A stretch of 15,144 nucleotides of DNA, taken from the UHGV virus genome UHGV-2113352. The stretch is one strand, 5' to 3'. The stretch is from a virus. Every line of letters begins with the position of its first letter. The first letter of the stretch is position 1. Position numbers and translations under genes: made by a program. Shown in pieces: positions 1 through 14,680 of the stretch. The notes beneath the pieces were generated by a model, which was given only the letters and a program-made list of their open reading frames with translations, searched no databases and was not told the DNA's origin.

Positions 1-202
1 GCTTACCGCTCATGGGCACCTCTCTTTAAGTCATCTTAAATGACTCTGAGGTGTCTGTTAAACCTGTGGCGATTCATCCCAGATGAACGCTACCAACTTC
101 GACAAGAAAAAACATTGCCTATCTTAGCAAAGTTCAAAGCTTGGCTCGATTCTGTATTCCAACTTATTGATTACAACTAAAAACTGAATGACAATCTGAA
201 AA

Positions 203-694
203 TTAAAGAAAAATATTCATAGCCAAGAATCCGACACCTCCAGCCAACACCAAGATACCTAAAACAACTATGGTTCGTAGCCCGCTTATCGATCTTTGCT
301 GAGACTCCGCCGCCGCCTCTAACTTGCTTTTCAATTCCGCTAATTGTTTAGCAATGCGGCTATCACTTGCTGTGCAGCCTTGTTCAAACTGCTCAGGTGT
401 TACAAACTTCAAGGCTGCAACCTCACGCCTTAGTTTCAACTGTTCATCTTTGATCTGGCCTAGAAGATCATTTAGTGACATAAGGCGACCGTCAAACTCT
501 TCAAATTTATTCGAGTTCTTCGTAAACAATTCAGCGTGTTCATAAGCTAGATTTACGAGCGTTGATTTCGCAGCCTCTATCTCAGTTCTTGCATCGCTGA
601 CGGCGCTCAACAGGCCATTAAACTGTGCCACTTGCGTCGATTGCTCTTCGAGTGAATCGATTACCCGGTGTAGTTTCTGTATGTCATTCACCAA
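203..694 (-). CDS. Small coiled-coil protein with C-terminal transmembrane anchor; third gene of the candidate defence operon
   Basis: 163-aa ORF. Charged, Leu-rich, heptad-like central region followed by a hydrophobic C-terminal segment (TIVVLGILVLAGGVGFLAMNIFL). Its start (TTG 692-694 or GTG 689-691) overlaps the stop of the upstream giant gene (TGA 688-690). A Shine-Dalgarno-like AAGGGG lies on the minus strand at about 700-705. No family recognised. Confidence 0.6.
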   Translation of the reverse strand: MVNDIQKLHRVIDSLEEQSTQVAQFNGLLSAVSDARTEIEAAKSTLVNLAYEHAELFTKNSNKFEEFDGRLMSLNDLLGQIKDEQLKLRREVAALKFVTPEQFEQGCTASDSRIAKQLAELKSKLEAAAESQQRSISGLRTIVVLGILVLAGGVGFLAMNIFL

Positions 695-3600
695 TTAATC
701 CCCTTGTATAGGCTGGTAAGTTTTTCAAGTCTAATTGCCAGTGGAGCTAACAAAGTGTGATAGGAGAACGGATCTCCTAGCTCTTCATTTACTTCCCCAA
801 GAAAATCCAAATCTTCAAATTTCTCATGGACCAAACGAGCAAAGCGACTTCGCGCATTTTCAGAAAATATTGGTTTTAACTGCATAGTTTTTCGGACCAG
901 CTCTAGTGCTTCATCCCTATTATCACTGATCAACCGATCAAATGACGATGCCATTCTTCGCTCTCCATCTGCATCATCAAACTCATCGGAAGCTAGTCGC
1001 AGCACACCACTCAAGTAGTTCAAGAATGCATTATCTTTGTATGACTCTAGGAATCGAGAAATCTGACCTCGTAGGATCGTCATCTTCTCGCTGCTTACTA
1101 AATGTTCCGAGCCCTCTTCTTCATCAGTTTCAAAAAAAACTGATGGCCATAACCTCACCGACACAGAATTCTCAGCCATATTGAGCAAAAGTTGGCTCGA
1201 CTTGTCGTGTCTGAAATAACCCTCTAACTTCTCCTTAAATTCTTTACCATCCATCCTGCCTTCAGCAAATAAACTACAGTGTTCATAAACATTCTTCTGT
1301 GACTGGCGGCGGTTGTAGACAAAATGGTCATAGGACCAAAGTAAAAGAACAAGAAAGATAAATTGCGATTTATCGATAGACCCTTTTCTCAGCTTGTCGC
1401 AGAGAATTTTGTAGTACTGGTTATCACTACTGAACACATCAGCGAGCTTAAACTCAGGATCATACTTTCTGACGGTATGCTCAATTTTCTTTTCCAGGCC
1501 TTCTTCCGATAGGCACTGGAACTCGACAGAGAGCGTTCCATTAAAAAAGTCTTCGATTACCCAGTCAGAGACAATACCTAATTGAGAAAGGCGGTAGATA
1601 GCCTTTTCCAATTTAAACTTTTCCGTACCAAACTGCCTGGCAGTAATGGTCACCGTGTTGTGTTCCTGATTGTACTTAAAAAATTCGTATACATTTGCCA
1701 TCAACTTGAACTCATCATTGATTGTGTCCAAGCCGTTTGTCATCAGGAATAGATTTGTGTTCAGGTCGCTATCGCGACTCAATGACTTCACGTACTCCTT
1801 CAGATCTTTGACGTTCGTGCTAGCGTCCCAAATCTTGTCGAGAATAGCTGAATTGGGCTCTTTTGTGAGAAGCACATAGCAATCTGCGGGTACTTCCTTG
1901 AATAGTTTTTTATCTCGCCCTGCCCTGCCAGCTTCCTGATACAAGGCCTCCATCGACCCAGGTATTCCGAAGTGAACCGTATAGGCAATATTTCCCTTAT
2001 TCACGCCCATTCCGAATGCCTTAGTGGCAGTAAGTAGGCGGTATTTATTTTCTTTAAAATCGTCTTGAACTTGGCGCTTATATCTATCGAAAGCCTCTCC
2101 CTGCAATCCACCCATTTTCGGAGCCGACCCCGAAAAATATCTAACATCCATCTTCAAGAGTGTTGATATTCGGCCCGCTAAGCTATAACACCCCTTAGCT
2201 CCGTTGACGGTAGAAGTGAATATGATCCCCGCCTTATTGCCGTCTTCCCCATCTGAATTCCATTTACCCTCCATTTCAGAAACAAGCTCGACGACTGCAT
2301 CACCTTTACGGCCTTTATCGTCAATGACGTGGAATGATAGTTCCTCGCGAGTGAAGTCCATGGGGGTACGGACAAAATCATCTGGGATATCAAACTCTGT
2401 TTGAATATCCTTTAGGACGTTAACTGATGCTGTTGCCGTTAGACCTATATAACTCGCACTGGGAGCAAACCGTTCGATTGTATTTGCCAGGTTCAGATAA
2501 GAAGTCCTGAAATCATGTCCCCACTCAGACAAACAGTGAGCTTCATCGATCACCGCGTAGGCAAATGAGAGATCTAGTCCGATAGCCAACATCTCTTTTC
2601 TAAACGCATGGGTTTGGAATCGCTCAGGCGATATAAAAACGAAGAAGTACTTACCACGTCCGAAATCTCTCTGAACTTTGGCCTTCTCTCCTGCCTTCAA
2701 ATCACTTGTAATAAAATTGCTTCGAGTGAAGCCGATGCTATCCAAATCTGCTTTCTGGTCATACATCAAACTTTTTATCGGGCACACGACAAAGCTAACG
2801 GCTGGTTGCAGGACCGCAGACAGCTGGTAACAAATCGACTTACCCGAACCTGTAGGCAGCAATCCTATTGTGCCGTTTTTCGAAAGTGCAGATCCTATGA
2901 TACCAACCTGCCCTTCCCTGAAATCTACATCCTCTAGGTATGGTAGAAACAGGTTGCTGAGGAAGTATCTCAGCGACTCTCTCTGCTCGCTGCCTGGGCT
3001 AAGATCTAGCTTGTAGGTAATGGGGTTACTACATGAAAGCTCGAAAAAGTCATAGTCAATCAATTGACTGGTTTCTATTGAAACAGCATCAGAATCTTCG
3101 AAGTTTCGATAGAAATCGAAGTAATCCGTACGTGAATATATGACGTCTTGGTTAACTTGAAAGGAATCGTCATAACGCTCCAGTAAGCTGAAGTCGATGA
3201 ATATATTTTCACCAGACCGTTCGCTCGGAAGCTCATCTGATTCGATCAGCGCAACCTCAATTCGCTTTTCTTCAATGCCGATGAGACGAAAGATATTCGA
3301 TAACAAATCGTTCAGGTCGTCCAGTGCCGCTTCAGCAAAATCAGTTCCATCACGATTGACTATGAATAGTTTTTTCAACTCCCCTAGTCTGATCTGACCG
3401 CGTTCAAGAAGCTCTAATAACAGTATCTGGAAACGCAACGCCGAGGTCAGCCTCAATCGCGAGTCAGTAACATCGACTCCATTTTCATAAGCCTCTTGGT
3501 AATTCAATAAAGAAATACCATTAGGAGGCGTTAGGACACCATTTCGCTCTAGACTATCAACGAGCTGAATTTGAGAAATAATCGAATTTATCTTACTGAT

Positions 3601-5364
3601 AAATGACTGATTCTCAGATGCCACTTCTCGAACAGTGAAACGAACTGTCTTCAGTCCCAAGGTTTCAGTAAACGCATCCCTCATCTCATCTAAATGCTGA
3701 GAATTTTGGTGCTGTTGACCATCTATCTCAATAATTAAACCAACTTGAGGAATGTAAAAATCTACCTGTCGGTTCTGGAATTGTTCAACGTAGACCTGAG
3801 TCATATCGTAAATCTGAACTTCAGGGAGCATTAGTTGTTTTACAAAAATGTACTCACCGAAATACTTTGGAATCAGCTCATCAAAAAACCTTTTCGCTGG
3901 GTAGTACCCAGAATGCTTGTTGCCTCGAATCAATCTATTCCAAAAAACTGGCTTATCTGACACAAGAGCCTGAGCTGATGTATTAAGACCGCTCTTCTCC
4001 AGTTCAATGCCAAATGCCTTCCTCAGTTTCCGCGAGGCTATTGTTGGCTTCCCTCTCTGAAGCATATTCTTAAGAACTTGAATTGCTGCAAATAGCTGTC
4101 CAGACGCCGCTTCAGACGAGATAGAATACTGGAGAAGATTGTGGAAAATGAAGTTATGGTTGGTTCTCGCGTAGTTAGCAGAAAACTTCTTGCTTACAAG
4201 CCTGCTACTAGACTTCGACCTGACATGTCTAGATAGTTCACTTTCGTCCGCCAGCGAGTCGATGATTGGGTTGTACAAATCTGAAAACAGTTGGTTATTG
4301 TGTTGTTGTTCTTGGCTGTCAGTGCCTAGCTCCAATCTATAGAGAGTTTTAACCAACGTAAAAATGTAAATACTTGAATTCGGAAAAGCTTGAGATAGAC
4401 AGCGTGTTATCTCATCAGTTGTAGCCCCCGAAGTTAATACGTCGTCAATGATCAGAAATGTCGGATTTGAATTAGCTTCTATTGAATCAAAATCGGCTTT
4501 ATAGGCACCTCTGACCTGGTGGAGTCTTTGTGCTGCAGTGCAATTAGTCGATTTATCTAATACGTGATCTTTCTCTAATATCTTAGGTTGGTAAGAAGCC
4601 CCTAAAGCAACAGCCAGCGATTTGCCCAAGGTATCTAATGCTTTATCGTCATCTTCAGCCCTAAGCTCAGCGTGACCTAACGCTCGAACAACTATATCTA
4701 TGGCTGGGAATGAAGGAGCTAGCTCAACAGTCTTGTTAACCCAGCGGCGAACAGAAGTATTCTTGTTATCCTTGAAAGACCAAACTTCCTGTTTGATACC
4801 ATCTAAATAGAATCCCAGATGAAGTTTATTCCCAGATTGTATTAACTCAGAACGTCCAGTTCTTGCGGAGCTCCGCGTCGAGTTTTTTCCAATAAGCTCG
4901 GAGAGACTGCTTATTCCCTTATGTGACGAATCGATCTCCGAGGCAGAACCCCAATCTACTGAGAAAAACTCAACTCCTGCATTGGAAGCAGCGTCTCGAT
5001 CTAGGTTACTATCTCCTAAATAAATTGACTCGTCGGCGCTAACACCGAAGTACTCGAGAATACGAGTAACGCCCTCAGGGCTCGGCTTATGCTGCGTTAC
5101 ATCATGGTAGGCTACTACATAATCAACAGTGATACTGAAGTGTTTGAGTAGCCCCTGAACGTAGTTCGAAGGCGCATTCGAGAAGATAGCAACCTTGATT
5201 CCAACCGACCGAGCCGTTGTAACAAGGCCGACAACGTCCTGATTGATGACACAACCATTAAAGTACCTGGGTATGTCTCTCCATCGGCCAGCTGACCGAA
5301 GTGGTTCGAGGCTTGATGTATCAATAAGCGTGTCATCAAGATCGAGGACGATGACCTTTATCAC
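688..5364 (-). CDS. Giant multidomain protein: N-terminal HAD-type phosphatase, phosphoribosyltransferase (PRTase), DUF559 (Vsr-like) endonuclease-like domain, RecQ-like SF2 helicase, and an unassigned ~400-aa C-terminal region
   Basis: 1558-aa uninterrupted ORF. HAD motif I LDLDDTL (aa 7-13) and motif IV GDSNLD (aa 117-122), nt about 4945-5364. PRTase PRPP-binding motif FLIIDDVLTSGATT (aa 303-316, nt 4417-4458). DUF559-type motif VDFYIPQVGLIIEIDGQQH followed by ..RD..L..G..RF (aa 534-577, nt about 3565-3957). RecQ-type helicase motifs: Walker A LPTGSGKS (aa 836-843, nt 2836-2859, checked against DNA), VIDEAHCLSEWGHDFR (aa 938-953, checked), LTATA (aa 975-979), YQEAGRAGRD (aa 1142-1151). GTG start at 5362-5364 overlaps the TGA stop of the upstream DprA-like gene (GTGA); SD-like AAGGTGG sits 6 nt upstream. 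Confidence 0.85.
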   Translation of the reverse strand: MIKVIVLDLDDTLIDTSSLEPLRSAGRWRDIPRYFNGCVINQDVVGLVTTARSVGIKVAIFSNAPSNYVQGLLKHFSITVDYVVAYHDVTQHKPSPEGVTRILEYFGVSADESIYLGDSNLDRDAASNAGVEFFSVDWGSASEIDSSHKGISSLSELIGKNSTRSSARTGRSELIQSGNKLHLGFYLDGIKQEVWSFKDNKNTSVRRWVNKTVELAPSFPAIDIVVRALGHAELRAEDDDKALDTLGKSLAVALGASYQPKILEKDHVLDKSTNCTAAQRLHQVRGAYKADFDSIEANSNPTFLIIDDVLTSGATTDEITRCLSQAFPNSSIYIFTLVKTLYRLELGTDSQEQQHNNQLFSDLYNPIIDSLADESELSRHVRSKSSSRLVSKKFSANYARTNHNFIFHNLLQYSISSEAASGQLFAAIQVLKNMLQRGKPTIASRKLRKAFGIELEKSGLNTSAQALVSDKPVFWNRLIRGNKHSGYYPAKRFFDELIPKYFGEYIFVKQLMLPEVQIYDMTQVYVEQFQNRQVDFYIPQVGLIIEIDGQQHQNSQHLDEMRDAFTETLGLKTVRFTVREVASENQSFISKINSIISQIQLVDSLERNGVLTPPNGISLLNYQEAYENGVDVTDSRLRLTSALRFQILLLELLERGQIRLGELKKLFIVNRDGTDFAEAALDDLNDLLSNIFRLIGIEEKRIEVALIESDELPSERSGENIFIDFSLLERYDDSFQVNQDVIYSRTDYFDFYRNFEDSDAVSIETSQLIDYDFFELSCSNPITYKLDLSPGSEQRESLRYFLSNLFLPYLEDVDFREGQVGIIGSALSKNGTIGLLPTGSGKSICYQLSAVLQPAVSFVVCPIKSLMYDQKADLDSIGFTRSNFITSDLKAGEKAKVQRDFGRGKYFFVFISPERFQTHAFRKEMLAIGLDLSFAYAVIDEAHCLSEWGHDFRTSYLNLANTIERFAPSASYIGLTATASVNVLKDIQTEFDIPDDFVRTPMDFTREELSFHVIDDKGRKGDAVVELVSEMEGKWNSDGEDGNKAGIIFTSTVNGAKGCYSLAGRISTLLKMDVRYFSGSAPKMGGLQGEAFDRYKRQVQDDFKENKYRLLTATKAFGMGVNKGNIAYTVHFGIPGSMEALYQEAGRAGRDKKLFKEVPADCYVLLTKEPNSAILDKIWDASTNVKDLKEYVKSLSRDSDLNTNLFLMTNGLDTINDEFKLMANVYEFFKYNQEHNTVTITARQFGTEKFKLEKAIYRLSQLGIVSDWVIEDFFNGTLSVEFQCLSEEGLEKKIEHTVRKYDPEFKLADVFSSDNQYYKILCDKLRKGSIDKSQFIFLVLLLWSYDHFVYNRRQSQKNVYEHCSLFAEGRMDGKEFKEKLEGYFRHDKSSQLLLNMAENSVSVRLWPSVFFETDEEEGSEHLVSSEKMTILRGQISRFLESYKDNAFLNYLSGVLRLASDEFDDADGERRMASSFDRLISDNRDEALELVRKTMQLKPIFSENARSRFARLVHEKFEDLDFLGEVNEELGDPFSYHTLLAPLAIRLEKLTSLYKGINW

Positions 5365-6347
5365 AGCAGGCCACCTTTTGCTTTCAATGACCCAAATGAA
5401 CTCGCGATATCTTCTAATTGAAGACGAATATCTTCATAAGATTCGCTCGTGTATGGTATCGCCCTCCCTTCGTTAACTAGCTGTTGAGTTCCTGAAATTG
5501 CCTTGATAGTAAGATCTGGATACTTAGCTTTATGTACGTCAGGAACGAAGACAGGACGCATCATAGAGATAGCAGATTTGACTGCGTGCATCGTCCCACC
5601 ATCTATCGAAGTTTCAATAGCAAAGACGGCAGTAGATAAACCTGCTTGTATCCTGTCTCGCTTAGCAAAGAACGCAGGTATTGCTTTGGTTCCTGGTGCA
5701 TTCTCTGCAACTAGAAGTCCGCCCTCGTCCAATATTTCCTTAGCGAGTTCCCGATTACTTGCGGGAGAAATAGACTCCACATCGACAAGAACAGAAATCG
5801 TTGGTGTTTTGGCATCTAATGCCGCGCGATGAGCAATTGTATCGATACCCAGTGCAAGTCCACTGACTATCGTGAAGCCATAAGTCGCAAACTTTTGAAT
5901 AGTTTTAATCGTTAGGGTTTCACCCTTGGGGGTATTTTCACGAGTTCCTACAACAGCTAATGAAAGCCTATTCTCTAAGAGATTTAGATTGCCTTTACAG
6001 TAAAGAAAGGGTGGAGGTTTTGGGAGATCATATAACGAAATTGGATAGTTTTTCGAACCGAAGATAACAATCTCAACTCCTTTATTTTTGAACGAATCAA
6101 TCTCTGTTTTTACTTCGTCCCTGAGAGCCTGGAAGTTCGCAGCGTCGAAGAAACTTTCGAGAGTTGCTCGAGATTTACCATTTGAGATTTTCAGATTGGA
6201 GGAGTTACGTACCAGTTCTTCGAGTGTTGACACTCCGCTGTACGCTGAAAACTTTAAGATTGACAGAACAGTTTCATCACCAACGCTCATTAACTTCTTG
6301 AGAACAAGAGCATCTACAATGTTCACTTCTCCCCCAAAGAACGACAA
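5361..6347 (-). CDS. DprA/Smf-like (SLOG superfamily) Rossmann-fold protein; first gene of the candidate defence operon
   Basis: 328-aa ORF. The central region (LAVVGTRENTPKGE..IVSGLALGIDTIAHRAAL..TISVLV..GGLLVAENAPGT..FFAKRDRIQAGLS..VFAIETSIDGGTMHAV) follows the conserved pattern of the DprA Rossmann domain (GxR.., SGLAxGID..AH..AL, FxxRNRiIaGLS, ..SG). The first start on the track is TTG at 6345-6347; the true start may be the downstream GTG (codon 8) or ATG (codon 20). Confidence 0.75.
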   Translation of the reverse strand: MSFFGGEVNIVDALVLKKLMSVGDETVLSILKFSAYSGVSTLEELVRNSSNLKISNGKSRATLESFFDAANFQALRDEVKTEIDSFKNKGVEIVIFGSKNYPISLYDLPKPPPFLYCKGNLNLLENRLSLAVVGTRENTPKGETLTIKTIQKFATYGFTIVSGLALGIDTIAHRAALDAKTPTISVLVDVESISPASNRELAKEILDEGGLLVAENAPGTKAIPAFFAKRDRIQAGLSTAVFAIETSIDGGTMHAVKSAISMMRPVFVPDVHKAKYPDLTIKAISGTQQLVNEGRAIPYTSESYEDIRLQLEDIASSFGSLKAKGGLL

Positions 6348-6460
6348 TTTTTAGTCCATTTACCATGCAGATTAATTGTATTCGACCAAGAACACAACAC
6401 AAACAAATATAGAATCGCCACGGATAATTTAGACACTTCCGAGCCGTTGATAATACTGGT

Positions 6461-7672
6461 TCAAACTAATGCAGCTATGCCTTTTACCTTGCTTAAAAGT
6501 TCAAGCTGTCGTGAATAAGGTTTTGCGCAATAGTAGGCTTTGATAATCTGCCCCGGTGTCGCATCGCCGGGGTCGAGTCCTTCCTCGCCCAAACACGCTA
6601 CTTTGACATTAAGACCGATACTGGTCAGTCGCCTGGCTGCGGCCATCGTGTTGCGTATAGCTTGCTTTTCACTATCCCACATCATAATCACATTACGTAA
6701 TCCACGCGCCTTGAGCGTCAGGAACGCGCCCAACTGATCTTCTGCATCCTGAGTGGTGTTACCAGATAGATGCATCCCGAACGTTCCTATCGGTTCCACG
6801 TAATCGCGTAATGTTTCTTCATCAAAAATAGCTCGTTTAACCCCCATAACATCGAACGCCCCCTCACAGACAACTACAGTCTGTTTGCCGACTGCATTGT
6901 GGCCGTTGTAGAGAAATTTACCCGATGCTGGCAGCTGCATGGGGAACAGATACCGGCGTTCTGCTGCACCGGTAATGTCACGACCCTGGAAGGTCTTCAT
7001 CACGCCATCCAGATCGTAAACCGGTATCAGTATTCGCATATCGAATACCTGTCCTTTGACCTGGTCTGTGTACGGATCGACGTATGCGTGCTTGCCTTCG
7101 ACGCAGTAACGCAGATCAAAGTATTTGGCCAGCTCCGGGGAAATCTGGCGCTCCACCAGATAATCAGGAAGACGACCGTCAATGGGGAGTTCGTAATGGC
7201 GCGGGAGAGCTACCGGTCCTTCCAGTTCAACCTTGCTGGCCAGTACGATCTCTTCCTTCTTCGGTGCCCATCCTTGTGAGATCAGCGCGTTCTGGACGTA
7301 CTCTTCAAAATCGCGACGAGATTTGCCGCTGTAATGCTTTAGGAAGACCAGCTTGTTGAACTGAATCTTTTCGGGATGATCACCTGCAAAGCATTTGCCG
7401 ACACCACTGGTCAGGTTGAAATAAACCTTCCAGTTTGAGCTGCCGCATACCGGACACTCTTTAATGTTGACCTCTCGTCCGCGAGTACTGACTCCACCAC
7501 GACGGTAGATGATCCCTTCCATATCGAGCCATTGCTCAAAATCCAGCTCGGTCAGTAATTCTTTCAAGTCGCTCACGTTCTTACCCCTATTTTTTGCAGG
7601 TAATATCTTGATAAGCCTCGGTATTTGAATATCATAAAGGCTCATGTGTTTTTTCTTTTGTGGTTTTGGCAA
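6461..7672 (-). CDS. DNA primase, phage T4 gp61-like (zinc ribbon plus TOPRIM)
   Basis: 403-aa ORF. Zinc-ribbon motif CPVCGSSNWKV..C..DH; the stretch ILIPVYDLDGVMKTFQGRDI..VVVCEGAFDVMGV resembles the T4 gp61 primase core (..IPIYN..G....FQGRAL..VYVLEGPIDSLF) as I remember it. Lies directly downstream of the helicase gene, as gene 61 follows gene 41 in T4. The track start is TTG 7670-7672; an in-frame ATG at 7643-7645 (MSLYDIQ..) is a plausible alternative start. Confidence 0.7.
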   Translation of the reverse strand: MPKPQKKKHMSLYDIQIPRLIKILPAKNRGKNVSDLKELLTELDFEQWLDMEGIIYRRGGVSTRGREVNIKECPVCGSSNWKVYFNLTSGVGKCFAGDHPEKIQFNKLVFLKHYSGKSRRDFEEYVQNALISQGWAPKKEEIVLASKVELEGPVALPRHYELPIDGRLPDYLVERQISPELAKYFDLRYCVEGKHAYVDPYTDQVKGQVFDMRILIPVYDLDGVMKTFQGRDITGAAERRYLFPMQLPASGKFLYNGHNAVGKQTVVVCEGAFDVMGVKRAIFDEETLRDYVEPIGTFGMHLSGNTTQDAEDQLGAFLTLKARGLRNVIMMWDSEKQAIRNTMAAARRLTSIGLNVKVACLGEEGLDPGDATPGQIIKAYYCAKPYSRQLELLSKVKGIAALV

Positions 7673-7700
7673 AAGAGAAATTTGTTCTCTTCTGGAGACA

Positions 7701-7736
7701 GGCGTGGAGAGTGTTTCCCCACGCCTTCTTTTTTAG
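7701..7736 (+). terminator. Hairpin plus T-run between helicase and primase genes, oriented as a plus-strand intrinsic terminator
   Basis: GGCGTGG (7701-7707), 11-nt loop, CCACGCC (7719-7725), then TTCTTTTTT. The T-run follows the stem only on the plus strand; on the minus (coding) strand it is an A-run preceding the stem. The T-run overlaps the helicase stop codon (7733-7735). Confidence 0.3.
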
Positions 7737-9073
7737 AGGACGTCCATAATGCGTTCGATGAATCGCATTTGTTCGAGGTTCTGCTTAACGCGGATGCTTA
7801 CGCCGCCTTTCTGGTTACGTGAACCAGCGAAGTAAAGACGCGCTTCGCCTTTCGCTTCTTCTTCTTCCGTTTTGTTGATAGTGATAACGAGGTCAGCGAT
7901 ACGCACCTTCTCGATGTTGTCCGCTGCGTGCATCATTGTAGCCACCTCAGAAGCGCCACCTTCTCTGTTAGTCTGCGATGCCGTGATGCCGGCAACGTTG
8001 TGTTTGTCGTACAGCGCACGCAGGTCAGTGTAGATGCTGCGAATGTTAGCGCGGTCGTCGCGGAGGTCGTAGCTGGCACGCATCAGGTCAGCGTAGTCGA
8101 CCACAACCATATCGGGGACCATACCGTTGGCTTTCATGCTGCCCAACATACGGTCCAGATCTGCGGGCGACATGCTTCCGGACGGTCGTTCAACAATCCA
8201 CAAACTTCCCACGCCTTTCGTCGCACCCAGCTCCGCCAGTTTGCGATGGACGTCATCGCGACGTTCCACCAGCCTGGACATTTCGGTCTCAGACAGACGG
8301 GCGTCAAAGCGATCTGACAGAATGGAGGTGTGAACTTCCAGCGACAGATACAGGACGTTGTAACCGGCAAGCGTGGCGTTGATGGAAAACTCCCCCATCG
8401 CCGTCGATTTACCAGACTTAGCGAAGCCCATAAATAGCACCATTTCACGCTTTGCCCAGCCTTTCTGGTAAAGCAGCTTGTCGAGCAGCGGGAGGCCGGT
8501 AGTGATGCTGTTTGGCACGTAATCGTCGGACGCTTCGTACTCACGGGCCTTGTAACGCTCCGCTGATTCTGCGAAGTAATCGTAAATGCCGGTCGCTTCG
8601 TTAGAGCCAATTTGCTGGACCTTAGCCATGATTGCCATCGCGCCCTGGAAATCGCCCTTCTCTTTCATCTCAGCCGCTTTAATTAGCGCATCGTCGAAAG
8701 CTACGCTTTTAGCAAATGTCGCGACCTGGTCGACCATGTACGCCGTATCTGACAGCTTCTCAGCGAGAATGCGCTTAAACGCCTCAACAACGTCAGGGAA
8801 CAGCTCTTCGCGGATCGTCTTATCGCGTTTGGCGCGTTTGAGCATGTCGAGGATGGCTGATGATGATGGTGCGCTCTTATACATTCTGTAGTAGCCCGAC
8901 ACCATGTTAACCAGAATGGAGTTAGCCGCATTAGAGAACTGGTTTGGGGCAACCAGATCGCCTGCGCGAGTCAGAAACTCATGGTCGCGACAGAAGTAGG
9001 CAGCGAGTCTATTCTGGAAGTCGTCGTCGAACTCTTCAGACAACCCTCGTCCTGTGTGGCAAAGTTCGGTCAT
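7733..9073 (-). CDS. Replicative DNA helicase, DnaB family, phage T4 gp41-like
   Basis: 446-aa ORF. Walker A GFAKSGKST; NVLYLSLEV and VVVDYADLM segments and the C-terminal region parallel T4 gp41 (NVLYISMEM, IIIVDYLGI) as I remember it. ATG start at 9071-9073 with SD-like AAGGAAAG 6-7 nt upstream on the minus strand. Confidence 0.8.
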   Translation of the reverse strand: MTELCHTGRGLSEEFDDDFQNRLAAYFCRDHEFLTRAGDLVAPNQFSNAANSILVNMVSGYYRMYKSAPSSSAILDMLKRAKRDKTIREELFPDVVEAFKRILAEKLSDTAYMVDQVATFAKSVAFDDALIKAAEMKEKGDFQGAMAIMAKVQQIGSNEATGIYDYFAESAERYKAREYEASDDYVPNSITTGLPLLDKLLYQKGWAKREMVLFMGFAKSGKSTAMGEFSINATLAGYNVLYLSLEVHTSILSDRFDARLSETEMSRLVERRDDVHRKLAELGATKGVGSLWIVERPSGSMSPADLDRMLGSMKANGMVPDMVVVDYADLMRASYDLRDDRANIRSIYTDLRALYDKHNVAGITASQTNREGGASEVATMMHAADNIEKVRIADLVITINKTEEEEAKGEARLYFAGSRNQKGGVSIRVKQNLEQMRFIERIMDVL

Positions 9074-9092
9074 GTGCTTTCCTTTGATACTT

Positions 9093-9112
9093 AAACAAAT
9101 TGTTTTCTAATA
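9093..9112 (-). promoter_or_regulatory. Candidate promoter/operator upstream of the helicase gene (motif B, copy 1)
   Basis: Plus-strand AAACAAATTGTTTTCTAATA; read on the minus strand it is TATTAGAAAACAATTTGTTT. It contains the inverted repeat AACAA-N-TTGTT, lies 20-39 nt upstream of the helicase ATG, and has a -10-like TAGTAT/TATTAG with a -35-like TTGATC 17 bp further upstream (plus 9132-9137). It matches 18 of 20 positions with 12013-12032. Confidence 0.4.
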
Positions 9113-9133
9113 CTAGAAAATCCAGATAGGGGA

Positions 9134-9859
9134 TCAACAGAATCGCCGTGCTTCTTCCAGTTCTTCCGGGAAATGCGCATAAATTACACGCTCAGGTACG
9201 ATTTCCATCAACCAGACTGCGGAGAAGATGATGCGGATGCGTTTATCTCGGGTAATGCCACGCAGACGCTCCAGAATCCACTCAAAATAGCGTTCTTGAA
9301 TCGGGTCGTGCTGCATGTCTCCCAGATACTTAAAACTCACCAGAGAGTCATCCAGACGGGTTACAGCGCGTTTGGCTAACTTCTCTTCGAATATCTCGAT
9401 CAGCTCGGGCTGCCAGAGATGCTGGGGGCGAGGCAATTTGTCCCACAGACGGCGCGCAGCTGCGGACAGAACGGTAGAAATGAAGTAGTCATAAGAGCAG
9501 CAGTACTGGTCGGCAAACTGGCGTGCTTTCCAGAGAGACGTTTTGTTGACCGTCGACAACTCCTGATATGGCACACGCTTCAGACCGGTTGTGAATGGAG
9601 CCGTCTCATAGTGTTCACGACCATGCGACAGCATGATGTATGAGTACTGGCGCTTGTATGCCTCAGTGAAAAGGCATGTGGCCATGAGCGGGTGCATATC
9701 GCGATAGTCAAACCATTTGGTTTCGAACAGTTCCGCCTCGTCCTTGCAACGTGACAGGCCAATGTTCTCCGCGACCCACTTATCCATGACTGCGGTGTTC
9801 CACTCTGTCATGAAATCGTACTGGTCATTGTCGATAGTGTTGAAGAAGATCTGGCTCAC
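9134..9859 (-). CDS. Hypothetical protein, first gene of the helicase-primase operon
   Basis: 241-aa ORF with GTG start at 9857-9859 and SD-like AAAGGGAA upstream. Co-directional and closely spaced with the helicase gene. No family recognised by eye. Confidence 0.55.
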   Translation of the reverse strand: MSQIFFNTIDNDQYDFMTEWNTAVMDKWVAENIGLSRCKDEAELFETKWFDYRDMHPLMATCLFTEAYKRQYSYIMLSHGREHYETAPFTTGLKRVPYQELSTVNKTSLWKARQFADQYCCSYDYFISTVLSAAARRLWDKLPRPQHLWQPELIEIFEEKLAKRAVTRLDDSLVSFKYLGDMQHDPIQERYFEWILERLRGITRDKRIRIIFSAVWLMEIVPERVIYAHFPEELEEARRFC

Positions 9860-9871
9860 ATGATTCCCTTT

Positions 9872-9893
9872 AATAGGTATGTACTTACTTATC
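9872..9893 (-). promoter_or_regulatory. Candidate operator (motif A, copy 1) upstream of the 241-aa gene and replication operon
   Basis: AATAGGTATGTACTTACTTATC; the 15-mer TAGGTATGTACTTAC (9874-9888) is identical to 14611-14625. Imperfect inverted repeat around the central TGTACT. Lies 13-34 nt upstream of the GTG start at 9859. Confidence 0.4.
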
Positions 9894-9964
9894 TAAGTGA
9901 GCGAATCATAGCGACTGGAGATATTTTTGGGAAGTGGAAACGGAAGGGAGTTGTTCTGGTGGGT

Positions 9965-9978
9965 GTCTTTTAAAAGAC
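9965..9978. promoter_or_regulatory. Perfect 14-bp palindrome GTCTTTTAAAAGAC in the divergent intergenic region
   Basis: Self-complementary 14-mer, flanked by CGGAAG (left) and CTTCCG (right) inverted segments and followed by an AT-rich tract (about 9990-10035). Lies between the divergently transcribed replication operon and the GIY-YIG-like gene. Confidence 0.35.
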
Positions 9979-10159
9979 CTGCTTCCGTATATATTTAATA
10001 AGTTACTTATTATTTATATACAGAAACAGGCATAACTTGTCGTCTTAGACACCCAGAAGCTCTACACTTTGAGCCTGTAAAATTGATTAAAAACTTATGT
10101 GTAAAATAGAACGCATTAGTCAGTAGCTAAGAGATGATTTATCGGTATACGCGAGATCA

Positions 10160-10897
10160 TTGGATAAGGCTAAATACTATGTTTACTGTCTCTATGATAC
10201 AGAAGACAAGATGAAAAGACCGTTTTACATAGGAAAAGGCAAATCGACTCGTTGTCTCGATCACATCAAGTATCCCGATGACTCTCCCAAATCCATGCGG
10301 ATCAAAGAACTTTTGGCTAATAAAAAATTAGGCATAGATATTCTTCGTCATGGTATGGATGAAACCACAGCCAAACTTGTTGAGGCGACATGCATCGACC
10401 TTATGGGGGTCGGAGAGCTTACGAATAAGGTACGAGGAAGTGGTTCCATGATGGGCAGAATATCACTGGACGCCTACCATCACTTAGTGCTGCAAGAGGA
10501 AACTGAAATTGCTCCTGAGCACGCCGGTCTTGCCTTCCTGCTAAACAGCACCTACAAGTCAGGAATGTCCGCTCTGGCATTATATGAAGCTACGCGTGGC
10601 GTATGGGCAAAGGTTCCAAGAGACGAGAATCTCAAATATGCCTACGCTACATATGGGGGCCTGATAATGGAAGTTTATCAGATTGAATGCTGGGTCAAAG
10701 CCGGTTCTCAGCAGTACTTTACAAGGGATATAGCTCTTGGCCCCGACACAAAACGTTATGAATTTGTTGGCAGAATAGCCGATGAGCATATTAGAAAACT
10801 GTATGTAGGCAAATTAATCAAGAAGCCACCAAGCTACGGCAGCCCTTTTGTGAAGGTTGGGGTGGTTAGGAATGAACATAGTGTTAGCGCGGCATAA
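10160..10897 (+). CDS. Hypothetical protein with an N-terminal GIY-YIG-like nuclease motif
   Basis: 245-aa ORF, the only long plus-strand gene in this region and divergent from the replication operon. N-terminus YYVYCLYD..KRPFYIGKGKSTRCLDH fits the GIY-(10-11)-YIG-..R..H pattern of GIY-YIG nucleases. The C-terminal ~150 aa is unassigned. Confidence 0.4.
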   Translation: MDKAKYYVYCLYDTEDKMKRPFYIGKGKSTRCLDHIKYPDDSPKSMRIKELLANKKLGIDILRHGMDETTAKLVEATCIDLMGVGELTNKVRGSGSMMGRISLDAYHHLVLQEETEIAPEHAGLAFLLNSTYKSGMSALALYEATRGVWAKVPRDENLKYAYATYGGLIMEVYQIECWVKAGSQQYFTRDIALGPDTKRYEFVGRIADEHIRKLYVGKLIKKPPSYGSPFVKVGVVRNEHSVSAA

Positions 10898-10949
10898 AGC
10901 TGACACTGTACTTATGCATTGGCGCGTACATTGCGCCAATGCATAATTT

Positions 10950-11309
10950 TTAACCTTTCTTCATCAACTCTCGTTTGATTTCATCGGTACGCATCGTGAC
11001 ATCGGCAGCTGTGATCGCCTCGTTAAGTTTCACGATGTCCTCGATTTCCTGCGGTGACTTCTCTGCCAGATGGAAAATGGCTGCGCGAATCACGTCAGAA
11101 CGGGTGAACTTCTCGAAACGAGGGATGAACTTCATCATTTCCAGCAGTTCGAAGTATTCGTCCTCCAGTGACATTGTGCGGCTTTTAATTTTCTCTTTGC
11201 CACGAGTCGGGCGTCCCTGTGGTCTGACTGGTTGGCGCAAAGGAGTTGTGTTCTTGGCCGGTGCATCAGGCTCTTTGCGCTTTGCTAGGTCACCCATTTT
11301 CATGGACAT
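10950..11309 (-). CDS. Putative partition adaptor / centromere-binding protein (ParG/ParB-like small partner of ParA)
   Basis: 119-aa ORF immediately downstream of the ParA-like gene; its ATG (11307-11309) overlaps the ParA TAA by 1 nt. Basic, Pro-rich N-terminal tail and a helical C-terminal half, as in small type Ib partition partners. Assignment is by position and composition only. Confidence 0.45.
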   Translation of the reverse strand: MSMKMGDLAKRKEPDAPAKNTTPLRQPVRPQGRPTRGKEKIKSRTMSLEDEYFELLEMMKFIPRFEKFTRSDVIRAAIFHLAEKSPQEIEDIVKLNEAITAADVTMRTDEIKRELMKKG

Positions 11310-11977
11310 TATTCTTCTTCCTCCAGACTCAACAGATAATCTACAAATTCTTCAAACTCGGCTTCCGCCTTTTTGTCGCGCTCGCTACCGGTCATTTCAA
11401 AGATAGAACGACCAGACTCTTCCGCATCATCATAGACGTTGCGGTTATATAAATTGACTGGCGCAGACTCGATGCCAAACGTCTCGACAATCTCTTTAGC
11501 CGCCAAAATGCGAGACACTTGTGATGGCAAAGCCGGGCACTGGTTCATGACCGCGCGGACCTTCACTTTATCGTTTACATTACGAACATTGTCGATAATA
11601 GGATCGATGTCACGCAGAGATTTCAAATCACGACGCTTAGGACGAAGCGGGATAATGATAACGTCGGCCATCAGCATCGCTTGTCGCTGAATTTCGGAGT
11701 CAAAGCCACCAGCATCTACCACTACAAACTCAGCTCTACCCTGAAGCGATTTTAGGTGCTTAATGATGTCATCCTGAACGTATGCAAAAGGAATCAGCTC
11801 AAGGTCTTCGTTCTGTCGACGGTCTTCACACCAGCTTGTTGTCGTGCGCTGAATATCTATATCAGTGATATAAACCTTCTTCTTCTTTTTGACTTTCAGG
11901 CAAACGGCAATTTGCTGGGCAACAGTGGATTTGCCAGGCCCGCCCTTTGTGCCGCCAACCACAAAGATCTTGGTCAT
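11309..11977 (-). CDS. parA: ParA-family partition ATPase (short, type Ib-like)
   Basis: 222-aa ORF. Deviant Walker A IFVVGGTKGGPGKST near the N-terminus and VVVDAGG (Walker A'/B-like); the size is typical of plasmid ParF/ParA type Ib ATPases. ATG at 11975-11977 with SD-like AAAGGGAA upstream. Confidence 0.65.
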   Translation of the reverse strand: MTKIFVVGGTKGGPGKSTVAQQIAVCLKVKKKKKVYITDIDIQRTTTSWCEDRRQNEDLELIPFAYVQDDIIKHLKSLQGRAEFVVVDAGGFDSEIQRQAMLMADVIIIPLRPKRRDLKSLRDIDPIIDNVRNVNDKVKVRAVMNQCPALPSQVSRILAAKEIVETFGIESAPVNLYNRNVYDDAEESGRSIFEMTGSERDKKAEAEFEEFVDYLLSLEEEE

Positions 11978-12012
11978 TGGAGAGTTCCCTTTGCGTATAT
12001 AATTATCGTCTG

Positions 12013-12032
12013 AAACAACTTGTTTTCTTATA
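12013..12032 (-). promoter_or_regulatory. Candidate promoter/operator upstream of parA (motif B, copy 2)
   Basis: Plus-strand AAACAACTTGTTTTCTTATA; minus-strand sense TATAAGAAAACAAGTTGTTT with a -10-like TATAAG and the inverted repeat AACAA-N-TTGTT. Lies 36-55 nt upstream of the parA ATG. Confidence 0.4.
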
Positions 12033-12256
12033 TGTGATATAGCCTAAATGCCTACGGCTGCGGTGTAAAGGTTATTTAGTAGGTTGTTATTGCCTATTGC
12101 TAGTAACTGTTTTCATTTGTCTGTTGAAAAAAGTGACAATCATCTCTATATTACGAGTACGGTAAATTGCCGTACACAATTTGATGACACATACGCAATG
12201 GGCTATAGCCCAGTTAAATAACCTTTGAGTCGAAAACTCAGTTTAAATAGAGAGCA

Positions 12257-12286
12257 ATGATGGCCTTCCTACATCACCGGCCATCA
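12257..12286 (+). promoter_or_regulatory. Candidate TacA (antitoxin) autoregulatory operator
   Basis: Perfect 8-bp inverted repeat TGATGGCC (12257-12264) and GGCCATCA (12279-12286) with a 14-bp spacer, ending directly before the AGGGGG SD and the ATG at 12297. Confidence 0.4.
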
Positions 12287-12296
12287 GGGGGTACAC

Positions 12297-12566
12297 ATGT
12301 CCGCACTGAAAAAGCAGCGCATCGATTTGAGATTAACCGATGACGATAAAAGCATCATCGAGGAAGCTGCCGCAATGTCTAACCAGAGCATTACCCAGTT
12401 CATGGTTAGCAGTGCATCCGAACGTGCCGTGAAGGTGATAGAGCAACACCGTAGACTGGTTCTAAGTGAAGAGTCCTGGAATCTGGTTATGGATGCTATA
12501 AGCAATCCTCCGGCACCGAACGACAAGCTGAAACGAGCTGCCAATCGTCTGAAAAGCATGGAGTAA
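12297..12566 (+). CDS. DUF1778 (RHH-type) antitoxin of a GNAT toxin-antitoxin pair (TacA/AtaR-like)
   Basis: 89-aa ORF MSALKKQRIDLRLTDDDKSIIEEAAA..SNPPAPNDKLKRAANRLKSME closely matches the TacA/AtaR antitoxin family as I remember it. Sits 7 nt upstream of the GNAT toxin gene. AGGGGG SD before the ATG. Confidence 0.8.
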   Translation: MSALKKQRIDLRLTDDDKSIIEEAAAMSNQSITQFMVSSASERAVKVIEQHRRLVLSEESWNLVMDAISNPPAPNDKLKRAANRLKSME

Positions 12567-12573
12567 TTTACTC

Positions 12574-13095
12574 GTGAGCAATACGACGATCGAGATTTTC
12601 TCTGGAGAGAACGATTATGATCTAAACGGTTTTGATTGCGGCGAAGAGTCACTAAACGCATTTTTGACCAACCACTTAAAAAGACAGCATGAAGGAAAAA
12701 TTCTTCGCGCTTATGTGCTTTGCACTAAAGAAGAAATACCAAAGGTATTAGGTTATTACACTTTGTCAGGCAGCTGCTTTGAGAAAGAAACCTTACCTTC
12801 AAAGAGTCAGCAAAAGAAAGTGCCTTATCGGAATGTCCCAAGTATCACTTTAGGCAGACTGGCTTTGGACAAATCTCTTCAAGGTCAGGGGCTTGGCTCA
12901 ATGCTTGTAACTCACGCAATGCGTGTTGTGTACAATGCATCTCTTGCGGTAGGCATTCATGGGCTTTTCGTTGAGGCGTTGAACGATAAAGCCAGGGCGT
13001 TTTATAAAAGTTTGGGCTTTATCCAGCTGGTTGGTAACAACGATCGTTCTTTGTTCTATCCAACAAAATCTATCGAAAAATTGTTCGAAGAATAA
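12574..13095 (+). CDS. GNAT-family acetyltransferase toxin (TacT/AtaT-like, aminoacyl-tRNA acetylating)
   Basis: 173-aa ORF with GTG start. Acetyl-CoA binding motif QGQGLGSMLV; size and the upstream DUF1778 antitoxin are typical of TacAT/AtaRT/KacAT modules. Confidence 0.8.
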   Translation: MSNTTIEIFSGENDYDLNGFDCGEESLNAFLTNHLKRQHEGKILRAYVLCTKEEIPKVLGYYTLSGSCFEKETLPSKSQQKKVPYRNVPSITLGRLALDKSLQGQGLGSMLVTHAMRVVYNASLAVGIHGLFVEALNDKARAFYKSLGFIQLVGNNDRSLFYPTKSIEKLFEE

Positions 13096-13101
13096 TGTGT
13101 C

Positions 13102-13117
13102 CCCCTCATTTGAGGGG
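13102..13117 (+). terminator. GC-rich hairpin immediately after the tacT stop codon (possible terminator or stabilising stem-loop in the convergent gap)
   Basis: CCCCTC (13102-13107), loop ATTT, GAGGGG (13112-13117), starting 7 nt after TAA (13093-13095). No clear U-tract on the plus strand; modestly T-rich on the minus-strand side. Confidence 0.25.
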
Positions 13118-13127
13118 AACTTGGACA

Positions 13128-13343
13128 TCACCAACCGCAAACTCTCTCTCCCATCGTATTGTGAAAAAGGATTTGGCGTTCGGTTTCTTCGGTCATTACA
13201 TCGTCATTGCTGATATAAATAGGTTCAGCGCCATCGCAGAACAACACGCTGGTGGTCTGTGGCTTAATTACGCACCCACTTATCATGCAGCTCACGATGA
13301 ATGGCAGAAGCATCTTTCTGACGTATTTCACTGTTCGTCTCAT
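13128..13343 (-). CDS. Putative o-spanin (Rz1-like outer-membrane lipoprotein), overlapping the 3' end of the i-spanin-like gene in another frame
   Basis: 71-aa ORF with ATG at 13341-13343. Lipoprotein-type signal peptide: basic n-region MRRTVKYVRK, hydrophobic MLLPFIVSCMIS and lipobox ISGC. The short mature part has further Cys residues. Overlaps 13264-13343 of the upstream gene and extends beyond its stop, the overlapped spanin architecture. Confidence 0.4.
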   Translation of the reverse strand: MRRTVKYVRKMLLPFIVSCMISGCVIKPQTTSVLFCDGAEPIYISNDDVMTEETERQILFHNTMGERVCGW

Positions 13344-13515
13344 TCACCACTTCCACTGTGCTTTGAAGACGCTTGTTATCTTCCCGCCGTTCTTTCTCTT
13401 CCATACTGCGTCTGGCCATATACCCGCCATAGGAGTATGCGCCGACAAGGACTAGAATGACGGCGGCCAGAGTGAACAAAGCGGATTTCATTTTGAACAA
13501 CAGGCCGTCGAACAT
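13264..13515 (-). CDS. Putative i-spanin (Rz-like) or holin-like small membrane protein
   Basis: 83-aa ORF. N-terminal transmembrane segment ALFTLAAVILVLVGAYSYGGY followed by a highly charged periplasmic-type tail. ATG at 13513-13515 is only 2 nt downstream of the stop of the preceding gene. Contains the overlapping lipoprotein ORF. Confidence 0.4.
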   Translation of the reverse strand: MFDGLLFKMKSALFTLAAVILVLVGAYSYGGYMARRSMEEKERREDNKRLQSTVEVVNETNSEIRQKDASAIHRELHDKWVRN

Positions 13516-13517
13516 AC

Positions 13518-14237
13518 TTACACTAATCCTTTCTGGTGCTTGCGAACCTGGGACCAGGCAATGAATGCTGCCACAAGAATGGTAGCTACGCCAAAGATGA
13601 TGCGTACCGTATCTCCACTGGAGATATTGCCTTGCGCTTTATCCATTGCGGCAGAAACTTGAGGCATAACGTCAGCAATTTGTGCAAGGCCAATACCTGC
13701 AGTGACTGTAGCACCTGTGGTTTCTTTTGTTACTGGAACGGCTTTTACAGCCTTTACCGGTTTGACAATGCCGGCACGTCGCAGACCTTCTTCGATAAGT
13801 TCTGGTGTATACCAGCTATTGGGAGTTTTCAGCGGACCTCGGCCATTTTCATGTCTAATGATCGCCTCTACCAGCGGTCTTAAGGTCTCGTAGTCATGCA
13901 GATCGATAATCATATCTGGTGCTACTCCAACGGCTTTGGATACCTCGTTCACATAAGCCAAAGTGTTGTTCTCATGTGGAGGCGCCCAGCGTTCGATGAC
14001 TTCGCGGATCGTATCAATGCTGGAGCCATCTTTTGCGCGGCGCTTGTCGTGGTAAGTAATGAGTGTCACTGCCAATGCCCGAATCCCCCACACGGGGTCT
14101 TTAAACGTGCAGAAGCGCGGTTCTGAAGAGTTGTTGACTAAGCCCTGCCACGGCGCTCCTTTATCAAGATTACCGGGGTTGTTATTACGAATGCCTCTCG
14201 GAGTTTTCATCCTTGATCTCCTGTTATTGCAATCCAT
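13518..14237 (-). CDS. Hypothetical membrane-anchored protein; candidate lysis enzyme (endolysin-like) by position only
   Basis: 239-aa ORF with ATG at 14235-14237. Conserved-looking N-terminal motif RGIRNNNPGNL; C-terminal hydrophobic helix VRIIFGVATILVAAFIAWSQV. Located between a small membrane protein gene and the spanin-like pair. No catalytic family could be assigned by eye. Confidence 0.5.
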   Translation of the reverse strand: MDCNNRRSRMKTPRGIRNNNPGNLDKGAPWQGLVNNSSEPRFCTFKDPVWGIRALAVTLITYHDKRRAKDGSSIDTIREVIERWAPPHENNTLAYVNEVSKAVGVAPDMIIDLHDYETLRPLVEAIIRHENGRGPLKTPNSWYTPELIEEGLRRAGIVKPVKAVKAVPVTKETTGATVTAGIGLAQIADVMPQVSAAMDKAQGNISSGDTVRIIFGVATILVAAFIAWSQVRKHQKGLV

Positions 14238-14559: not shown

Positions 14560-14607
14560 GAAAAGTCAAATCGGGATGGCGTGTTTATATCATATTTTAA
14601 CCATTTG

Positions 14608-14631
14608 TAGTAGGTATGTACTTACCTACTA
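14608..14631 (-). promoter_or_regulatory. Candidate operator (motif A, copy 2) upstream of the lysis-like operon
   Basis: TAGTAGGTA-TGTACT-TACCTACTA: a perfect 9-bp inverted repeat with 6-bp spacer. Lies 49-72 nt upstream of the ATG at 14559 and shares the 15-mer TAGGTATGTACTTAC with copy 1. Confidence 0.45.
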
Positions 14632-14680
14632 TATATCTTGCAAACTAATCGTTGTTAATAATGCAGATATAATCTGCCCC

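Follow-up and report, generated by a model that had tools for sequence, protein, structure and literature searches.

A 6.3-kb cargo module between insertion-sequence remnants of an SSU5-like phage-plasmid encodes a likely anti-phage operon that joins a DprA-like protein, a phosphoribosyltransferase and a RecQ-family helicase

In this work we describe a three-gene operon, and the island that hosts it, in a 15,144-nucleotide stretch of the virus genome UHGV-2113352 (the whole of this stretch is referred to here as the window). The window comes from an SSU5-like phage-plasmid of Escherichia coli. Positions 1-15069 are 98.3% identical to the plasmid pLAO18 (NZ_OP242248.1, 111,874 bp, IncFIB typing), and the primase-helicase pair beside the island is 91% identical to its counterpart in Salmonella phage SSU5. 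The three genes encode a DprA-like protein, a giant multidomain protein and a small membrane protein (Table 1). We propose that 77-6410 is a 6.3-kb cargo module that was delivered by insertion sequences (ISs) into the plastic locus of SSU5-like replicons, and that it encodes a likely anti-phage operon of the toxin-antitoxin (TA) or abortive-infection type; we put the probability of this reading at roughly 0.75.

Table 1. Positions of the operon, its protein domains, the island borders and the adjoining replication genes in the window.
Feature	Position	Strand	Remarks
ISEhe3 (IS3-family) terminal remnant, left border	1..76	minus	ends ...GTGGCGATTCA at base 76
Whole cargo island	77..6410	minus	homology with relatives that carry other cargo ends at 76 and restarts at 6408/6448
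IS66-family TnpC pseudogene fragment, first part of the imported module	77..184	plus	Pfam DDE_Tnp_IS66 3.1e-5
Third gene, 162-aa tail-anchored coiled-coil protein	203..691	minus	GTG start at 691 overlaps the upstream stop as GTGA
Giant gene	688-5364	minus	1558 aa
All-helical C-terminal domain, residues ~1286-1558	691..1509	minus	pLDDT 85-95; no Pfam match
RecQ-family helicase core, residues ~811-1285	1510..2934	minus	two RecA lobes, helical hairpin, winged helix
Conserved alpha/beta domain, residues ~601-810	2935..3564	minus	pLDDT ~90; no Pfam match
DUF559/Vsr-like endonuclease, residues ~489-600	3565..3900	minus	Pfam DUF559 1.4e-9
ShosT/ComF-type phosphoribosyltransferase, residues ~170-390	4195..4857	minus	PADLOC ShosT 1.3e-7; NCBIfam GntX/ComF 2.8e-7
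HAD-type hydrolase, residues 1-160, equivalent of the ShosT pyrophosphatase	4885..5364	minus	Pfam HAD_2 3.6e-17
First gene, DprA-like, ShosA/PsyrA type	5361..6347	minus	longest reading frame from TTG 6347, 328 aa
Upstream AT-rich region of the operon	6348..6410	minus	promoter presumed; spacer 6348-6460 has 36% GC
Other ISEhe3 terminus remnant (first ~51 bp), right border	6411..6461	plus	abuts the primase stop codon
Primase	6461-7672	minus	right of the island; stop codon 6461-6463
DnaB-like helicase	7733-9073

Three co-directional open reading frames (ORFs) on the minus strand fill 203-6347 and are joined by 4-base overlaps (GTGA) at both junctions, the stop codon of the first gene overlapping the GTG start of the giant gene. 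The first-pass annotation of this DNA, made from the letters alone, began the operon 113 bp from the primase stop codon, and this distance is correct (the gap is 6348-6460). It also had the operon run to the window edge, which is not quite the case: bases 1-76 are an end of ISEhe3 and bases 77-184 are the scar of an IS66 element. Finally, it reported that no integrase or transposase is visible. This is true of intact genes, but termini of ISEhe3, a fragment of an IS66 TnpC and the end of an IS1 copy (15070-15144) are all present. A scan of 1-6600 found no promoters above shuffled expectation, no tandem repeats and, in the interval from the primase gene to the operon, no terminator.

The first gene is matched by Pfam DNA_processg_A at 1.9e-53, and Pfam finds no helix-turn-helix (HTH) domain in it. 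Among the PADLOC models it matches ShosA at 6.8e-68 (over 36-283) and PsyrA at 1.5e-28, and its best PDB matches are the ShosA entries 8zva and 9vzo at 6e-34. The true start is likely the GTG at 6326, which would give a protein of 321 aa; the N-termini of homologues (MNIxDAL) align to this codon and GGGGGAG lies just upstream of it. A housekeeping DprA was considered and rejected, as the score of 159.7 is under the equivalog cut-off of 191.15.

The giant protein hosts four enzymatic domains, and the catalytic signatures of all four are kept across the family alignments. In the N-terminal HAD domain the DxDxT residues D8, D10 and T12, plus K93, D118 and D122, are kept in at least 90% of the family, and the fold matches ShosT (8zvc). 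The phosphoribosyltransferase (PRTase) domain that follows has an invariant phosphoribosyl pyrophosphate (PRPP) loop (DD...TxGxT), formed by D307, D308, T311, G313 and T315. We searched a model of residues 1-820 (predicted local distance difference test score, pLDDT, 86) with Foldseek; the best PDB matches are the ShosT structures 8zvc, 8zvd and 8zvb, with E=2.5e-11 and ~400 columns that extend across both the HAD and the PRTase domains. A short stretch without a family assignment separates the PRTase from the nuclease domain, in which D535, E546, D548 and H552 are invariant and whose family profile matches the PDB entry 3hrl, an 'endonuclease-like protein', at 2e-8.

The helicase core belongs to the RecQ family, as it scores 223.6 bits with NCBIfam recQ_fam (TIGR00614) against a cut-off of 219.8. 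Its best PDB matches are the RecQ entries 4tmu and 1oyw (~1e-41), and Foldseek returns 6crm and 1oyw at ~5e-20. Three helicase motifs are invariant, namely Walker A (GxGKS, 839-843), the DEAH box (940-943) and motif VI (QEAGRAGR). The housekeeping RecQ equivalog was ruled out (TIGR01389, 240 against a cut-off of 640), and on reading the sequence we saw no four-cysteine zinc cluster. The two remaining domains are also conserved. The invariant set of residues 601-810 includes D683, S726, R730, D733, R745, Y748 and D772, and the C-terminal domain carries invariant or nearly invariant blocks with W1343, Y1345, H1347, N1351, R1352 and an RFLESY block. Fold searches with half-models were dominated by RecQ, HAD and ShosT matches and gave no resolution of these two domains.

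The product of the third gene ends in a C-terminal transmembrane helix (Kyte-Doolittle maximum 2.47, residues 140-158). Homologues of this small gene (155-201 aa) come after the helicase gene in 11/11 contexts examined, and they have in common a motif at the N-terminus and a hydrophobic helix at the C-terminus. The full-length family of the giant protein (1540-1590 aa) forms ~105 clusters at 90% identity, with 41-68% identity, mostly from marine and other environmental bacteria. A short form that starts at about residue 392 (1130-1190 aa, without the HAD-PRTase part) is more numerous and more diverse among 50%-identity representatives. Variants in which the core bears a different N-terminal extension also occur among these representatives, as does the HAD-PRTase part in fusions elsewhere, e.g. 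to HEAT repeats. The DprA-like gene varies together with the PRTase: it precedes PRTase-bearing forms with a 4-nt overlap in 7/7 independent contexts (the window included) and is absent from 4/4 contexts of short forms. Defence genes are found beside homologues, namely Zorya with BrxR; McrBC; a type I restriction-modification (RM) system with GmrSD and Mrr; AIPR; and GmrSD with HEPN.

On the simplest reading, the operon looks like a fusion of a ShosTA-like pair with a nuclease-helicase and membrane-protein core. The first of these modules would be the HAD pyrophosphatase-PRTase 'toxin', residues 1-390 of the giant protein, with its DprA-like partner. The second would be a more widespread two-gene core, made up of the Vsr/DUF559 nuclease-RecQ helicase and the small tail-anchored coiled-coil membrane protein.

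The first-pass annotation had further suggested that the region is more AT-rich than the replication genes, and that it is horizontally acquired cargo in a variable hotspot. We find both suggestions to be sound. The GC content is 43.1% in 1-6460 as well as in 77-6410, 51.4% in the replication genes (6461-9073) and 45.9% in 9074-15144; in one-sided Mann-Whitney tests on non-overlapping 500-bp windows, the island differs from the replication genes at p=0.0009 and from the rest of the window at p=0.012. In pLAO18 the replicon has 48.3% GC and the island 43.15%, and just 5.7% of the 6,371-bp windows have a GC content as low as the island's or lower, all of them inside one other accessory block. 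The sliding-window and codon-usage checks that had been proposed both depart from the backbone, rather than being uniform: the codon bias of the giant gene relative to the backbone is 0.361, compared with 0.16-0.20 for backbone genes of at least 1000 codons. Composition by itself, without relatives, is suggestive of a foreign origin and would not prove it; what makes the case decisive is the comparison of related replicons.

The proposed alignment with related replicons shows that the region between the primase and its left neighbour is a variable cargo site. The flanks (window 1-76 with its leftward continuation in pLAO18, and 6408/6448 onward) are 97-99% identical to those of many relatives, which carry, between these same flanks, phd/doc and a yehD fimbrial operon, an IS1 accompanied by a TPR gene, or an IS5 together with genes for a sulfatase and its maturase and, in some cases, hok. 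In phage SSU5 the slot holds a single 966-bp gene. Had the relatives all carried the same operon here, the idea of a cargo site would have been in trouble, and they do not: we searched PLSDB for plasmids with the primase-helicase pair at a coverage of at least 80% (n=662), and the island adjoins the pair in just 4 of these and is absent from the other 658. The module itself (78-6397) recurs at 97.5-97.7% identity in four Klebsiella/Raoultella plasmids and three E. coli chromosomes; the neighbours of the chromosomal copies include Mza genes, genes for restriction-type nucleases and a type I RM system. The giant protein has counterparts of at least 90% identity in Escherichia, Enterobacter, Klebsiella, Citrobacter, Aeromonas and Vibrio. 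At megablast sensitivity, no deposited phage genome carries the island; only SSU5-type backbone was matched.

According to a published survey, resistance genes inserted into SSU5-like phage-plasmids cluster at one locus next to a DNA ligase family (10.1101/2022.06.24.497495), and judged by position the island slot is most likely that locus. Some copies of the operon are damaged. The giant gene is split by IS1 in the related phage-plasmids NZ_CP086388.1 and NZ_MG516909.1 and by IS5 in the plasmid NZ_JBSAOW010000004.1, and three Klebsiella plasmids hold truncated remnants only. These copies suggest that the operon is recurrently inactivated.

Both borders of the island are ends of the same insertion sequence. 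On the left, window 1-77 is 100% identical to a region annotated 'ISEhe3 orfA' in Shigella phage SfIV, and the flank corresponds to the last 76 bp (the right end, 3680-3750) of an intact 1.24-kb IS3-family copy in the locus L018. Directly upstream of this border pLAO18 encodes a fragment of an IS3 orfA (HTH_Tnp_1, 5.8e-18). On the right, the remnant matches the left end of the same intact copy (2507-2557), with the terminal T of the TG end missing, and many records carry the annotation 'IS3 family transposase' at this match. An imperfect 37-nt inverted repeat is found exactly at the two borders (39-75 and 6412-6448), and in Klebsiella phage Kp4865-2 both of its arms map 1,231 bp apart. Thus the cargo is flanked by the right end of ISEhe3 (at base 76) and its left end (at base 6411), which are in direct orientation and turned towards it. 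On the left, pLAO18 retains ~218 bp of the element and some fragments; the stub on the right measures ~51 bp.

The module opens with the IS66 scar (23.9 bits against a cut-off of 23.1 for Pfam DDE_Tnp_IS66). In the chromosomal and Klebsiella copies this fragment runs further left, whereas here it is cut exactly at the IS end, which points to capture from a chromosomal or Klebsiella-type context. Because ISEhe3 termini bound the island and an IS66 scar opens the module, delivery is IS-mediated. The module was probably captured from a defence island elsewhere and then placed by IS-mediated events, which could have been a composite-transposon-like transfer, the formation of a cointegrate followed by deletion, or recombination. 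An integrase- or tRNA-targeted island was ruled out, since there is no tRNA and no integrase ORF in the window and there are no direct repeats at the borders. Xer/pdif-, Tn7- and attC-type sites were likewise dropped as explanations of the border repeat, as its arms match the two ends of ISEhe3.

Two further observations concern these termini. The 13-mer CCGTGGCGATTCA, which equals the ISEhe3 terminus, also occurs beside an IS5/IS903-type fragment in the relatives with a sulfatase (L004 and L005); there it lies at the right-hand junction, with ~45 bp to go to the shared backbone, and in direct orientation relative to the left arm. It may be a rearranged IS end or partly a coincidence. In the chromosomal and Klebsiella copies L015-L017, upstream of the DprA-like gene and ~40 bp past the right end of the module, there is a putative IS911-type terminus (TGAAGTGGTCAACAAAAACTGGCCACC), which would be another IS3-family end.

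What might the operon do? ShosTA and PsyrTA/RqlHI are defence systems that pair a PRTase toxin with a DprA-like antitoxin (PMC11961720, PMC12961424, PMC4670107, PMC9122126). ShosT consists of an N-terminal HAD-type pyrophosphatase followed by a PRTase (PMC11961720), and its toxicity requires the pair D331/D332, the counterpart of the DD in the PRPP loop of the giant protein. Taking homology, synteny and co-variation together, we infer that the operon most likely functions as a TA- or abortive-infection-type defence. Directly observed here are the composition and the borders of the island, where it is distributed and, for its genes, domain homology, intact catalytic motifs, synteny and co-variation.

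We can sketch a mechanism for the operon by analogy with ShosTA and PsyrTA/RqlHI (PMC11961720, PMC12961424, PMC4670107), in which the toxicity, its trigger, the defence phenotype and any role of the membrane protein are all inferred. The PRTase part would be a PRPP-dependent genotoxic effector. In uninfected cells the DprA-like protein, acting via single-stranded DNA (ssDNA) and RecA, would offset this genotoxicity. During infection, phage replication intermediates might engage the helicase-nuclease part, titrate the DprA-like protein, or do both, and either these intermediates or host shut-off would release the effector. The released PRTase activity would then block DNA replication, of phage and host alike. 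The nuclease and the RecQ helicase, covalently tied to the effector, probably provide DNA recognition or processing.

A number of points weigh against our proposal. The sequence similarity to ShosT is remote (13-16% identity; the PADLOC match at 1.3e-7 covers half of the profile), and phmmer found no match to the ShosT chains at 1e-3. Relative to the PsyrTA/RqlHI toxin the domain order is reversed, with the PRTase ahead of the helicase, in a protein more than twice as long. Residues 601-810 and 1286-1558 have no family by Pfam or by a family-profile search of PDB sequences, and the third-gene membrane protein has no assigned function. In the literature we found no experimental work on the operon or any family member. 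The per-gene z-scores for composition in pLAO18 are modest (GC -1.3 to -1.6, GC3 -1.3 to -2.35). The same hotspot holds non-defence cargo, namely fimbriae and sulfatase, and therefore the location does not itself imply defence. As for delivery, two IS copies with their inner ends abutting the cargo are present, as in a composite transposon, but complete copies with outer ends and a target-site duplication are not; no such duplication was found at the IS-cargo junctions of the window or of the locus L002. Moreover, the same ISEhe3 stubs flank a different, fimbrial cargo in relatives, which simple composite transposition does not explain. Given the lack of a duplication, the missing T and the shared stubs, recombination, or a cointegrate followed by deletion, fits better than a single composite transposition.

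Among the rival accounts, one is that the AT-richness is ordinary heterogeneity of the backbone and the region is native. The modest GC z-scores (-1.3 to -1.6), the existence of other backbone genes that are as AT-rich, and a GC content of 45.9% in the rest of the window, with dips to 38.6%, could be read in this way. However, 658 of the 662 replicons with the same pair lack the island and have unrelated cargo instead, copies of ~97.6% identity sit in unrelated replicons, and IS termini mark the borders. These comparative data refute the idea, and we give it next to no weight. An account that we regard as unlikely is that the operon is mainly a plasmid-addiction module, which stabilises the phage-plasmid by post-segregational killing, with phage defence secondary or absent. 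ShosTA and PsyrTA were after all first found as TA pairs, ShosA is intrinsically unstable, phd/doc is found in the same hotspot of relatives and the backbone of the window already has a DUF1778/GNAT TA pair. Yet the identical module is also found in defence islands of chromosomes, a setting in which addiction means little, its homologues lie among Zorya, McrBC, RM and GmrSD genes, and replicons with the three IS-disrupted copies persist. That said, the addiction and defence roles are not mutually exclusive.

The company of a DprA-like protein, a helicase and a PRTase also recalls natural transformation, where the same three activities occur, a parallel noted by Russell and Mulvey. The operon could on this account be an accessory for recombination, repair or uptake, an analogue of the DprA-ComFA-ComFC competence trio that serves the replication or recombination of the phage-plasmid. 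The match of the PRTase domain to NCBIfam GntX/ComF (2.8e-7), the place of the operon directly downstream of the replication genes and the promotion of homologous recombination by ShosA all fit. We nevertheless hold this to be quite improbable. Only 4 of 662 related replicons have the operon, which is therefore not needed for replication; the DprA-like protein is under the dprA equivalog cut-off and closest to ShosA; neither a Vsr-type nuclease nor a HAD pyrophosphatase belongs to the competence machinery; and the genomic neighbours are defence genes. A bolder version of the defence reading, which we consider less likely than not, holds that the operon is not a decorated ShosTA but a distinct three-component defence system, in which a nuclease-helicase/membrane core captured a ShosT-like effector and a DprA-like guardian. 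If this were true, phosphoribosyl-transfer chemistry would be tethered to a DNA-translocating enzyme, with phage replication intermediates as its site of action or its target. A PRTase, a RecQ-type helicase and DprA have been joined repeatedly and independently (in RqlHI, in ComFA/ComFC/DprA and, in the reverse order, here), and this recurrence would then suggest a common reaction that takes place on DNA or ssDNA.

Returning to the IS-delivered defence cargo that we favour, the island as a genome feature is ordinary and the hotspot was already known, so that the interest lies in the cargo. The locus adds one more case of IS-driven turnover of cargo in the plastic locus of SSU5-like replicons. 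It also shows a temperate phage-plasmid as the carrier of a defence-type operon of which almost identical copies exist in several genera, on plasmids as well as on chromosomes. The operon is an intact and compact E. coli example of a conserved family (~100 full-length clusters at 90% identity, and many more of the short form), and this family ties ShosTA and PsyrTA/RqlHI to a nuclease-helicase and a membrane protein. In the literature we came across no account of a HAD-PRTase-nuclease-RecQ fusion that has a DprA-like gene as its partner.

A PRTase that is joined to a RecQ helicase and a nuclease gives direct access to a question about the acceptor substrate of the ShosT and RqlH PRTases, namely whether their chemistry is aimed at DNA. 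Furthermore, as the DprA-like gene occurs only together with the PRTase module, co-variation yields an assignment of partners that can be tested.

Outside the island, the window continues to the right of the replication genes with a ParA-type ATPase, a DUF1778/GNAT TA pair, lysis genes and a tail-fibre assembly gene. The TA pair (12297-13095, plus strand) consists of a DUF1778 antitoxin and a GNAT acetyltransferase toxin (TacAT-like); it is kept in relatives and belongs to the backbone, not to the island. In pLAO18 the tail-fibre assembly gene is uninterrupted (582 bp), but in the window the end of the IS1 copy at 15070-15144 breaks it, and for this reason the phage-plasmid of the window may be defective in tail-fibre assembly. 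A GIY-YIG (LEM-3-like) protein is encoded at 10160-10897 on the plus strand; PADLOC matches it to a defence candidate, PD-T4-3, at 1.9e-23. Since SSU5 and pRHB03-C12_2 hold a DUF2971 gene in this place instead, the locus is a second, small variable slot. The segment 9751-10250, which adjoins the GIY-YIG gene, has a GC content of just 38.6%. Beyond the window, positions 3154-12215 of pLAO18 carry SNF2-related, DUF4391, DNA methyltransferase and DEAD/DEAH helicase genes at ~41% GC. This is the lowest-GC part of the replicon, its codon usage deviates as much as that of the island, and it is probably a second defence-type cargo.

How does the operon compare with systems that are already known? The cargo of the SSU5-like plastic locus shares its location with the island, most likely the single ligase-side locus where resistance genes and ISs accumulate (10.1101/2022.06.24.497495). 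It differs in that the cargo here is a defence-type operon and not resistance genes, and in that the flanking ISs are terminal stubs only. The competence proteins DprA, ComFA and ComFC likewise bring together an ssDNA-binding protein of the DprA fold, a superfamily 2 (SF2) helicase and a ComF-type PRTase. However, they belong to other equivalog-level families, and the helicase here is of the RecQ type, not the ComFA type; moreover, the operon is located on mobile elements in defence islands and is not known to be required by its hosts for taking up DNA. A PADLOC model labelled DpdF (PDLC02868) covers residues 469-1471 of the giant protein at 7.7e-113. Membership of the Dpd system of 7-deazaguanine DNA modification was nonetheless ruled out, as NCBIfam NF041063 gives 139.4 bits against a cut-off of 550, and none of the dpd genes is found in the window or in the homologous loci examined (L006-L017). 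The label appears to reflect one cluster in the DpdF model set rather than membership.

The closest comparisons are with the two PRTase defence systems. PsyrTA/RqlHI combines a RecQ-family helicase and a PRTase in one polypeptide with a DprA-like partner, as here, and the PADLOC model for PsyrT matches the giant protein at 6.2e-61. Its toxin is built differently: RqlH (~690 aa) has an N-terminal helicase, a C-terminal PRTase and neither a HAD nor a nuclease domain. RqlI has ~400 aa with a C-terminal HTH, in contrast with the partner of ~321 aa found here, which is closer to ShosA, and PsyrTA has no third gene. ShosTA resembles the operon in both of its components. The DprA-like partner is closest to ShosA, in PADLOC and PDB comparisons alike, and the first 390 residues of the giant protein are a HAD pyrophosphatase followed by a PRTase with an intact PRPP loop, the arrangement of the toxin core. 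ShosT, however, is a stand-alone protein of 424 aa in a two-gene system, whereas the ShosT-like module described here is fused to ~1,170 further residues and is accompanied by a conserved third gene.

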